The translations under genes were made by a program, and so were the position numbers. Source: Enterobacteria phage ID18. Taken from it: 5,486 nucleotides of DNA. Location of the stretch: the sequence record NC_007856.1; one strand, 5' to 3'. Under the pieces are notes generated by a model that ran no database searches, was not told the origin of the DNA, and saw only the letters and a program-made list of their open reading frames with translations. Shown one piece after another: positions 2,556 to 5,486 of the stretch. Each line of letters begins with the position of its first letter. The stretch's first letter is position 1.

Positions 2556-3836
2556 ATGTCTAACGTACAAACTTCCGCTGAACGTATTCCGCATGACCTC
2601 TCACATCTGGTATTCGAAGCTGGTAAAATCGGACGCCTTAAAACTATCTCCTGGACTCCTGTTGTCGCTGGTGATTCTTACGAAACTGAAATGGTAGGCG
2701 CTATTCGTCTTTCTCCTCTCCGTCGTGGTCTGGCTGTCGACTCTCGCGTCGACGTCTTTACTTTCTATATCCCTCATCGTCATGTCTATGGTCAACAATG
2801 GATTGACTTTATGAAGACTGGCGTTAACGCTACTCCTCTGGCTCCGGTAACTTGTTCCTCTGGCTGGGATTCTGCTGCCTATCTTGGCACTATCCCGTCA
2901 ACTAATTTGAAGGTTCCTAAATTCCTTCATCAATCTTATCTCAATATTTACAACAACTACTTTAAGCCGCCGTGGTCTAATGACCTCACCTATGCTAACC
3001 CATCTAATATGCCCGCTGAGGATTACAAATGGGGCGTTCGTGTCGCTAACTTAAAATCTATCTGGACCGCGCCCCTTCCTCCTGATTCATTAACTAAGCA
3101 GGATATGACTACTGGCGCTACCACTATCGATATTATGGGCCTACAAGCTGCCTATGCTAAACTCCACACTGAACAGGAACGTGACTATTTCATGACTCGC
3201 TACCGCGATATTATGAAAGACTTTGGCGGTCACACCTCCTACGACGGTGATAACCGTCCTCTGCTCCTGATGCGCTCTGAATTTTGGGCCTCTGGCTATG
3301 ACGTCGACGGTACTGACCAAACTTCATTGGGTCAGTTCTCTGGTCGCGTCCAACAAACCTTTAATCATAAAGTGCCTCGCTTCTATGTTCCTGAGCATGG
3401 CGTAATTATGACTTTATCTGTTACTCGCTTCCCTCCTACTCACGAAATGGAAATGCACTATCTCGTCGGTAAGGAATCTCTGACTTATACTGACATTGCC
3501 TGTGACCCTGCTCTTATGGCTAACCTGCCTCCGCGTGAAATTGAGGTAAAAGACCTCTTTCACTCTGCTGGTACTGGTAAATTCAAAATTGCCGAAGGTC
3601 AATGGTATCGTACTCAGCCTGACCGCGTTGCCTTCCCTTATAACGCTCTTGACGGCTTCCCTTTCTATTCTGAACTGCCGTCTAATGATATTCTCGAACG
3701 TGTACTTGTTCGAACTGATAACTATGATGAAATCTTCCAGTCTATGCAACTTGCACACTGGAACATGCAAACTAAATTTAACACTACTGTATATCGTCAT
3801 ATGCCTACCACTCGTGATGGCATCATGACGTCATAA
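2556..3836 (+). CDS. F: Major capsid protein F (426 aa)
   Basis: AAGGA at 2545-2549, 6 nt before the ATG. The product is collinear with phiX174 F along its full length (MSN.QT.AER.PHDLSHL, RLSPLRRGLA.DS, IDIMGLQAAYA.LHT.QERDYFM.RY, GTDQTSLGQFSGRVQQT, LPPREI, FKIAEGQWYR, TTRD.IMTS). Confidence 0.95.
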   Translation: MSNVQTSAERIPHDLSHLVFEAGKIGRLKTISWTPVVAGDSYETEMVGAIRLSPLRRGLAVDSRVDVFTFYIPHRHVYGQQWIDFMKTGVNATPLAPVTCSSGWDSAAYLGTIPSTNLKVPKFLHQSYLNIYNNYFKPPWSNDLTYANPSNMPAEDYKWGVRVANLKSIWTAPLPPDSLTKQDMTTGATTIDIMGLQAAYAKLHTEQERDYFMTRYRDIMKDFGGHTSYDGDNRPLLLMRSEFWASGYDVDGTDQTSLGQFSGRVQQTFNHKVPRFYVPEHGVIMTLSVTRFPPTHEMEMHYLVGKESLTYTDIACDPALMANLPPREIEVKDLFHSAGTGKFKIAEGQWYRTQPDRVAFPYNALDGFPFYSELPSNDILERVLVRTDNYDEIFQSMQLAHWNMQTKFNTTVYRHMPTTRDGIMTS

Positions 3837-3845
3837 AACAAAACG

Positions 3846-3881
3846 TTGAACGGGTACAAATTTTAATTTGTGCCTGTTCAA
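3846..3881 (+). other. F-G intergenic imperfect hairpin (about 13-bp stem including G-T/G-U wobble pairs, AT-rich loop)
   Basis: 3846-3858 (TTGAACGGGTACA) pairs with 3869-3881 (TGTGCCTGTTCAA) around the loop AATTTTAATT. It sits in the 92-nt F-G untranslated region, which in phiX-like phages holds the post-F terminator and complementary-strand priming signals. Confidence 0.4.
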
Positions 3882-3928
3882 GGTTGAACAAGCGAAGCGC
3901 GTTAGCTAACTTACTTAAGGAAATTCTC

Positions 3929-4462
3929 ATGTTTCAAACTTATCTCTCTAAACATAATTCTCCGTTAACTTCTCTGTCTATTACTGCTACAAAAACACCT
4001 GCGGCTGCTGCTCCGATTATTTCTACACCGGAGCTTAGCCGCTCTACTATTTTCGCTGGCTTAACTCTGACTGCTGCCACTACTCATTCTGGTGTCGCTC
4101 ATGTCGTTCGTATTGACGAAACCAATCCTACTGACAATCAGGTCTTATCGGTCGCCGCTTCTTTATCTGGCGTACCGTCTGATGCTATTGCTATTGCTAT
4201 TCGCTTTGAGGTCGCTGACGGTACCGTCCCTACTGCTCTCCCTGCTCTCTACTCTGCTTATCCGGTGGAATTCTTCACTTCTGGCGCTGCTCTGTCTTGT
4301 AAGGATGCCGTATCTATTCCGACGCATCCTGTTACTGCTGGTAATGATGTATATGCTGGTATTCTTATCTGGTCCAAATCTTGGTCCGCTGGTGTCGTCT
4401 CCGGCCTCTTATCTGTTAATCAGGTAAACCGTGAAACTACCGTACTCCAACCTCTTAAATAA
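3929..4462 (+). CDS. G: Major spike protein G (177 aa)
   Basis: ATG at 3929 preceded by TAAGGA at 3916-3921. The product begins MFQTYLSKHNS (phiX174 G begins MFQTFISRHNS) and ends ...SLNQVNRETTVLQPLK (phiX174 ...SLNQVIKEIICLQPLK). The track ORF starts at an upstream TTG (3884) and is over-extended. Confidence 0.88.
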   Translation: MFQTYLSKHNSPLTSLSITATKTPAAAAPIISTPELSRSTIFAGLTLTAATTHSGVAHVVRIDETNPTDNQVLSVAASLSGVPSDAIAIAIRFEVADGTVPTALPALYSAYPVEFFTSGAALSCKDAVSIPTHPVTAGNDVYAGILIWSKSWSAGVVSGLLSVNQVNRETTVLQPLK

Positions 4463-4472
4463 GGTCTAATCT

Positions 4473-5486
4473 ATGTTCGGTGCAATCGCTGGCGGTATCG
4501 CCTCCTCTCTCGCTGGTGGACTCCTGAACAAAGCATTCGGGGGCGGTTCTTCCGCTCCCCAATCTGGCGTTCAAGGTAATGTCCTCGCTACTGACAATAA
4601 TGTAATCGGTGCTAATGATGCTGGTATCAAATCCGCTATTCAGGGTTCTAATCCTCCCAATGGTCAACAAGCTGCTCCCAATGCTATATCGGGCGTTCTT
4701 GCCGATACTGGCAAAGACGCCCTATCTTCAATCACTGGCGCTGGCGTTAATAAACTTATGGAAAAAATCGGACTCTCTAAAGATGCTGCTGCTAAAGGTA
4801 AGGATACGAAAGATTATCTTGCTTCTGCGTTCCCCGAACTCAACCCGTGGGAACGTGCTGGCGCTGGTGCTTCTTCTGCTGGAATGGTTGATGCGGGATT
4901 CCAAAACCAAAAGGAATTAACTCGCATGCAGCTTGACAATCAAAAAGAAATCGCTAAGATGCAAAACGACACTCAAAAGGATATCGCTGGTATCCAGTCT
5001 GTTACTTCTCGGCAAAATACTAAGGACTCTGTGTATGCTCAAAACGAAATGCTCCAATACAACCAAAAAGAATCTATGTCACGCGTTGGCGCTATTCTCG
5101 AAAACACAAGCCTCACCAAACAACAACAAACTTCTGAAATTATGCGGCAAATGCTTACTCAGGCTCAAACCTCAGGTCAACACTTTACAAATGACCAAAT
5201 CCAAGAACTTACTCGAAAGGTCGGCGCTGATATTGATGCTGTTCGTGCTAACACTGAACGTACACATGTAGAAACGGACCGCTCTAAGCAGGAGGTCCAA
5301 AACTCTCGTTACGCTTCCTCACAAGTCGGTAAAACCGCCAAGGATGTATCAAATGTCATTAGTGACGCATCTTCTGGTATTGTTGATTATTTTCGTGGCG
5401 TTGATAAAGCTGTCGCGGATACTTGGAACAATTATTTCAAAGATGGCAAATCGGATGGGATAAGCTCAAACCATCGTACCAAATAA
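4473..5486 (+). CDS. H: Minor spike / DNA pilot protein H (337 aa)
   Basis: AAGG at 4461-4464, 8 nt before the ATG. The product is collinear with phiX174 H ([132 protein letters not shown]). Stop TAA is the last three bases of the window. Confidence 0.93.

Follow-up and report, generated by a model that had tools for sequence, protein, structure and literature searches.

The 10-bp palindrome before gene G of phage ID18 is probably an incidental, lineage-specific feature at the edge of a conserved phiX174-type spacer element

The DNA analyzed here, which we refer to as the window, is the complete 5,486-nt genome of the G4-like microvirus ID18. It is 98.4% identical to coliphage WA14 and identical to the IMG/VR UViG 638275834_000001. 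Gene limits taken from the WA14 annotation place gene F at 2556..3836 and gene G at 3929..4462, and the end of F at 3836 together with the start of G at 3929 defines an F-G spacer of 92 nt (3837-3928). Within this spacer lies GTTAGCTAAC (3901-3910), which occurs once in the window. A sequence-only reading of the same DNA had described it as a perfect 10-bp palindrome just upstream of the gene G ribosome-binding site, and had offered a protein-binding site, a small hairpin affecting G translation, or chance as explanations. The description is accurate: a sequence check confirms that the 10 nt are their own reverse complement, and the order at 3897-3931 is gcgc-GTTAGCTAAC-ttact-TAAGGA-aattctc-ATG, with 5 nt (TTACT) between the end of the palindrome and the gene G Shine-Dalgarno TAAGGA (3916-3921). 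The AAGGA and the ATG of gene G are conserved in the alignments of relatives. What had been missed is that the left half of the palindrome (3901-3905) is part of a deeply conserved, structured spacer element. Coordinates of this element and of its neighbors are collected in Table 1.

Table 1. Features of the F-G spacer and the start of gene G, in coordinates of the window
Feature	Coordinates	Strand	Description
Large imperfect hairpin	3842..3885	+	Pairs 3842-3844/3883-3885 and 3846-3861/3866-3881; AT-rich tip
Block GGTTGAACAAGCGAAGCGCGTTAG	3882..3905	+	Alignments A1 and A2; 3' end is the left arm of the palindrome
Second hairpin, AAC-AA-GCG-AAG-CGC-GTT	3887..3903	+	Outer pairs 3887/3903, 3888/3902, 3889/3901; inner pairs 3892/3900, 3893/3899, 3894/3898
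GCGAAGC mini-hairpin motif (GCGNAGC)	3892..3898	+	Invariant in all phiX-type spacers; the ID2/Lille type has GCGCAAGC
GCGTTAGC, second mini-hairpin motif (GCGNNAGC)	3899..3906	+	Abuts GCGAAGC; overlaps the palindrome at 3901-3906
Palindrome GTTAGCTAAC	3901..3910		Left arm GTTAG (3901-3905) conserved; right arm CTAAC (3906-3910) lineage-specific
Variable linker	3906..3915	+	From the conserved block to the gene G Shine-Dalgarno; holds the right arm of the palindrome; alignment A2 columns 96-107
Gene G translation initiation region	3916..3931	+	TAAGGA 3916-3921, 7-nt spacer, ATG 3929-3931; WA14 annotation

Neither the number nor the location of the palindrome is unusual. Maximal perfect palindromes of at least 10 bp number five in the window (at 1332, 2821, 3825, 3901, and 4217), and 2,000 dinucleotide-preserving shuffles of the window contain 4.41 on average, with at least one in 99% of the shuffles and at least five in 44%. 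When the 92-nt spacer alone was shuffled in 20,000 trials, a palindrome of at least 10 bp appeared in 14.7% of them, and shuffling of the 43-nt tail alone (3886-3928) produced one in 10.2%. The tail segment GTTAGCTAACTTACTTAAGG is composed of TTA/TAA/CTTA units, so palindromes arise easily in it. The shuffled control that had been proposed along with the sequence-only reading was run here and places the palindromes of at least 10 bp in the window at chance frequency, which supports that reading's hedge that the palindrome may be chance.

The distribution of the palindrome among relatives was followed in 13 aligned sequences including phiX174 (alignments A1 and A2), a shallow sampling that comprises five lineages. 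The intact palindrome is restricted to one shallow lineage, consisting of the window, of WA14 and EMCL318, both with 97.5% or more identity to it, and of the metagenome fragment L030. L016, an IMG/VR contig 92-94% identical to the window genome-wide, reads GTTAGTTAAC at this position; the change C3906T breaks the central pair in a spacer that is otherwise unusually conserved (2 differences vs 7.4 expected, P = 0.022). The form GTTAG-CT(G/A/C)C-CTAAC is present in ID2, FL68, Lilledu, lillemer, Lilleto, SECphi17, MG1, Lilleput, and L018. The corresponding stretch is GTTAGCTACTTAAC in ID204, GGTAGGCTCTTAC in PJNS002, and GGTAGGTTTTCTG in phiX174, from each of which the palindrome is absent. Comparison with relatives, the second check proposed earlier, thus confines the palindrome to near-identical genomes and finds it broken in L016. 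The sequence-only reading had named non-conservation in relatives and chance frequency in shuffles, taken together, as what would speak against a functional palindrome, and both are observed.

The palindrome at 3825-3834, ATGACGTCAT, is also a perfect 10-bp palindrome; it lies just before the spacer, over the last gene F codons, and takes in one base, the first, of the stop codon. It is not conserved, the sequence being ATGACTTCTT in EMCL318, L016, and the Lille phages. A metagenome scan with the pattern GGTTGAACAAGCG(N)AAGCGCG returned 13 loci, and only L018 and L030 among them are homologues. The remaining loci, L019-L029, were rejected as unrelated GC-rich chance matches: L019-L023, L025, and L027-L029, from soil metagenome, belong to a GC-rich contig family that shares GGTTGAACAAGCGGAAGCGCG, is unrelated to microviruses, and carries a GGAGCCGGC...GCCGGCTCC hairpin about 35 nt upstream, and L024 and L026 are isolated matches, likewise unrelated. 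The alpha3 F-G spacer, at only 33 nt, was not comparable and was set aside.

How the right arm came to abut the left may be read from the alignment. MAFFT places no gap here and sets CTAAC of the window over CTGCC of ID2, and CTTAC of the window (3909-3913) over the CTAAC arm of ID2 and the Lille phages; CTTACT is common to the window and PJNS002. The right arm may have originated by deletion of a 4-nt loop. Given the gapless alignment and the CTTACT of PJNS002, an origin by few substitutions in loop or linker sequence appears at least as likely.

We find little to suggest that the palindrome forms a structure. In partition-function folding it pairs with itself with a probability of 0.012-0.016 as RNA and of about 0.08 as DNA; having no loop, it can form a stem of 3 bp at most. 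Across relatives, the palindrome columns self-pair at a level of 69%, on a par with shuffles (67%) and with slid controls. Randomizing the right arm 200 times gave a mean unpaired probability of 0.385 +/- 0.063 from the Shine-Dalgarno to the AUG, against 0.385 for the native sequence. A hairpin that controls translation would be stable, would change accessibility, and would covary, and the palindrome does none of these; the earlier suggestion of a small hairpin affecting G translation is therefore not borne out. Local RNA structure is not significant in the gene G initiation region (-3.4 kcal/mol, z = -0.58); a candidate hairpin at 3915-3968 that would sequester the ribosome-binding site was rejected on these values and on its absence from ID2 and G4. 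This candidate comes from a fold of 154 nt of RNA, where the Shine-Dalgarno and AUG of gene G pair with G codons 9-14 (TTAAGGAAATT with AATTCTCCGTTAA). An Rfam search gave no match.

The earlier suggestion of a protein-binding site fares no better. Such a site would lie on RF dsDNA, where a dimeric protein of host or phage would bind and thereby control gene G or replication, and the perfect dyad symmetry of the palindrome, its non-coding position, and its place next to a gene start would suit that role. An operator or dimeric site is recognized by conservation of both half-sites or by repetition in the genome; here, however, the right half-site is variable, the sequence is kept in near-identical genomes only, and its center is changed in L016. 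No second copy with at most two mismatches was found in the window, where the single match is the palindrome itself (2.2 expected), and palindromes of this length are as frequent as chance predicts. There is also no promoter upstream of G to regulate, as a consensus scan of the spacer (3837-3928) found no promoter-like or terminator-like site. Gene G of phiX174-type phages is expressed from upstream read-through transcripts, and these phages are not known to encode transcription regulators. Taken together, we regard regulation through such a site as very improbable.

The left arm of the palindrome ends a block (3882-3905) that is invariant in all 13 sequences, phiX174 included, the exceptions being a covarying pair (3888/3902) and, in the ID2/Lille type, one inserted C. 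The block corresponds to phiX174 2348-2371 and thereby to most of the phiX174 "shorter hairpin" (2353-2373), in which 16 detrimental mutations, distributed over both stems, are reported in a preprint (10.64898/2026.07.25.740675). In the window, palindrome bases 3901-3903 supply the 3' strand of the second hairpin, whose six pairs are paired in 100% of cells across the 13 sequences. At 3888/3902, 11 sequences have A-T, whereas phiX174 and PJNS002 have C-G; T3902 changes to G only together with the change of A3888 to C, and G3901, T3903, A3904, and G3905 are invariant in 13/13 including phiX174. Where 3902 is G, its downstream partner in a GTTAG/CTAAC stem stays A, and that pair is lost. The inner stem of the second hairpin is part of the DNA minimum free energy (MFE) structure with a probability of about 0.6. 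The outer AAC/GTT stem has a predicted probability of 0.005 as RNA and about 0.12 as DNA, and its support is a single co-substitution, possibly one event common to phiX174 and PJNS002. An alternative register (3887-3889 with 3905-3907), which fits phiX174 2353-2373, was rejected for the clade, its middle pair being unpaired in 10/13.

The large hairpin that precedes the second one is strongly maintained. Its DNA fold has an energy of -16.7 kcal/mol (z = -3.6), and its 19 pairs, nine of which show compensatory changes on both sides among the five lineages, are paired in 99.2% of cells; none of 500 shuffles did as well, and slid controls reached 33-51%. By blastn, window 3842-3905 matches phiX174 2308-2371 with 78-80% identity over 64-66 nt (E = 9e-7), and a 20-nt block of the spacer is 95% identical to phiX174. 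The window spacer accordingly shows what marks the phiX174 type: a location between F and G on the viral strand, homology to phiX174 2308-2373, and a long hairpin that evolution has preserved. Binding of PriA with activation of its ATPase, and SS-to-RF conversion that depends on the primosome, also belong to the type and are known from phiX174 only. The phiX174 counterpart of this hairpin acts as the T_F terminator, which overlaps ori(-) and the site bound by PriA (preprint 10.64898/2026.07.25.740675). T_F is a weak intrinsic terminator of the phiX174 F-G spacer. According to a review, the primosome assembly site is a fork-like hairpin at which PriA, PriB, PriC, and DnaT load DnaB. Judged by its sequence, the large hairpin is the homologue of this phiX174 F-G hairpin (T_F terminator, ori(-), and primosome assembly site of PriA, also called protein n'), and we infer PriA loading and transcription termination in ID18 by homology. 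An intrinsic terminator in the strict sense, a G+C-rich stem-loop directly before a T/U tract, was not found within 3837-3928.

We propose that the palindrome is probably an incidental and lineage-specific juxtaposition, in which the left arm comes from an ancient conserved element and the right arm from variable linker. The left arm GTTAG (3901-3905) would be the 3' end of an ancient phiX174-type single-strand element, made up of the large hairpin at 3842-3885 and then the GCGAAGC hairpin closed by AAC (3887-3889) and GTT (3901-3903). The right arm CTAAC (3906-3910) would lie in a fast-evolving linker to the G Shine-Dalgarno and would have become complementary by accident in one lineage. On this proposal the left half is conserved because it closes the ancient hairpin of the phiX174-type origin/terminator spacer, and selection would act on the conserved element, not on the palindrome. 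By homology, the element could load the PriA primosome of the host on viral-strand DNA coated with SSB, leading to complementary-strand synthesis, and downstream of gene F it could act as a leaky terminator of transcription or form mRNA 3' ends. The palindrome as such would then be without importance, and the gain would be the correct reading of the region as a phiX174-type T_F/ori(-)/PriA-site module.

Some observations run counter to an incidental palindrome. In the ID2/Lille type the arms GTTAG and CTAAC are invariant in nine sequences, and the third loop base is G, A, or C, as in a real stem-loop; the window lineage, for its part, retains complementarity to GTTAG. These observations raise the alternative that GTTAG...CTAAC is a genuine third small stem-loop, with a 5-bp stem and a tetraloop in ID2/Lille, of which the window holds a collapsed, loop-less version. 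Such a stem-loop could work in the mRNA, immediately 5' of the G ribosome-binding site, or within the terminator. The hairpin is present in the DNA MFE structure of ID2, and the sole arm change in ID204 leaves a G-T wobble. It is, however, missing from the ID2 centroid structure and absent from phiX174 and PJNS002, and none of its five pairs shows a compensatory change, departures being simply unpaired. The aligned window arm, CTTAC, is interrupted in its middle by a T-T mismatch (pairing probability 0.000), the abutting arms of the window are limited to 3 bp, and accessibility of the ribosome-binding site is indifferent to randomization of the right arm; in L016 the center is broken. The nine sequences are near-identical over the whole spacer, so the invariance of their arms carries little weight. 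We therefore consider a third stem-loop unlikely and retain the incidental palindrome as the preferred reading.

The kind of spacer found here also distinguishes ID18 from the namesake of its genus. A 136-nt F-G spacer is common to G4 (3884-4019), WA3, ID12, and ID11, with 96-98% identity among them, and the G4 record annotates it with primer RNA (3970-3997) and the complementary-strand origin. The window spacer is unrelated to it (48.6% global identity, no local match) and shows neither homology to hairpins I-III nor the CTG primer start 3' of hairpin I that define a G4-type primase origin; no homologue of the G4 origin was found anywhere in the window. Genes F and G of the window, on the other hand, stand at 81% and 69% to G4 vs 70% and 58% to phiX174. 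Since the spacer is phiX174-like while both genes are nearer G4, the genus holds two spacer types.

Across Gequatrovirus, these are an unrelated pair, the 136-nt G4-type primase origin and a 92-102-nt phiX174-type spacer, the latter carried by the window, WA14, EMCL318, ID2, ID204, FL68, the Lille phages, SECphi17, MG1, and PJNS002. In ID2 (L017), the middle part of the G protein is phiX174-like (DPKYIACLVRFE vs DPKFFACLVRFE in phiX174), whereas the window G resembles that of G4, a pattern suggesting that the ID2 lineage is mosaic around the F-G junction. If confirmed, the phiX174-type assignment would mean that closely related microviruses start the complementary strand by two host pathways, primase alone or the PriA primosome, by way of an exchangeable spacer, a point of relevance to host-range and priA-dependence experiments with these model phages.

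One stretch of gene G (4217-4236) recalls the G4 origin. There the 12-bp palindrome GACGGTACCGTC runs into CCTACTGC, and the resulting 13-mer CCGTCCCTACTGC equals G4 3987-3999, the 3' arm of origin hairpin I plus the CTG primer start. We rejected this candidate as a coincidence, because WA14 already lacks an intact palindrome and L016, L030, and G4 have none. The 13-mer, the only one in the window to match the G4 origin, is not conserved even in WA14, and the stretch encodes the conserved DGTVPTA.

A further alternative assigns a function to the left six bases of the palindrome, as part of GCGTTAGC. GCGNAGC is an extraordinarily stable DNA mini-hairpin motif (Tm 76.5 C), and the GCGTTAGC octamer occurs in hairpin I of the alpha3/St-1 primase origins (PMC13037366). 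With GCGAAGC at 3892 and GCGTTAGC at 3899, the window contains just two plus-strand mini-hairpin motifs, and they are adjacent (3892-3906). Such a motif may fold into a compact hairpin with a sheared G-A pair that withstands SSB and nucleases. Nearest-neighbour folding gives the first motif probabilities of 0.006-0.03, although such models do not capture the compact sheared G-A hairpin. On this alternative, the tandem motifs would be an SSB-resistant landmark on the viral strand that aids the complementary-strand origin. The single plus-strand motif of G4 likewise falls in origin hairpin I, as does the GCGTTAGC of alpha3. ID2-type spacers keep two motifs, GCGCAAGC and GCGTTAGC. The exact GCGTTAGC motif is found in 10/13 sequences, so that C3906 may be under some constraint, and the pairs of this motif are compatible in 96% of cells across the 13 sequences.

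Against this, no covariation was detected in the GCGTTAGC motif across the same 13 sequences. The pair 3899/3906 is G-C in 10/13, becomes G-T in L016, where the motif is lost (GCGTTAGT), and is unpaired in phiX174 and PJNS002, where the motif is absent (GCGGTAGG); phiX174 and L016 have the first motif only. The number of motifs in the window is at chance (2 vs 1.5 expected), no CTG primer start follows downstream, and the second motif competes with the CGC strand of the GCG/CGC stem. Moreover, the part played by mini-hairpins in priming at the G4, St-1, and alpha3 origins is itself only a proposal (PMC13037366). We give the tandem motifs an outside chance of being such a landmark, and it is just as doubtful that, together with the PriA-type hairpin, they would constitute an SSB-excluding origin landmark in those phages of the G4 genus that carry a phiX174-type spacer. 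If it were so, one genus would hold two interchangeable origin modules, both using mini-hairpins. Our preferred reading remains that of a phiX174-type element whose 3' end happens to meet a complementary linker.

Set against known systems, the window spacer shares some traits with two primase-dependent origins. Its GCGTTAGC matches letter for letter an octamer of alpha3 at 5048, in the alpha3 G-H spacer. In alpha3, however, this octamer caps an 8-bp hairpin, and the CTG start comes after it, whereas that of the window abuts another mini-hairpin, has neither an extended stem nor a CTG, and is lost in L016. The G4 complementary-strand origin occupies the same F-G slot in the same genus and holds a GCG(A)AAGC mini-hairpin motif. 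It is primase-dependent, has three hairpins with the primer start at the CTG after hairpin I, and spans 136 nt vs 92 nt in the window; lacking the arrangement of hairpin I and CTG, the window spacer is not a member of the G4 origin type.

The phiX174 F-G hairpin differs from that of the window in the sequence of most of its lower stem, and the window genes are G4-like. Unlike phiX174 (GGTAGGTTTT), the window has no T run, and no U/T tract, after either hairpin. Yet the two large hairpins share the slot between F and G and the same AT-rich tip, AAATTTTAATTT. For the phiX174 "shorter hairpin", the closing pair is C-G where the window has A-T, and the sequence that comes next is TTTT (2373-2376), read as part of the terminator, in place of which the window has CTAACTTACTT. 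The "shorter hairpin" nonetheless aligns base for base with window 3887-3907, with GCGAAGC and the closing stem in common, and it takes in palindrome bases 3901-3907.
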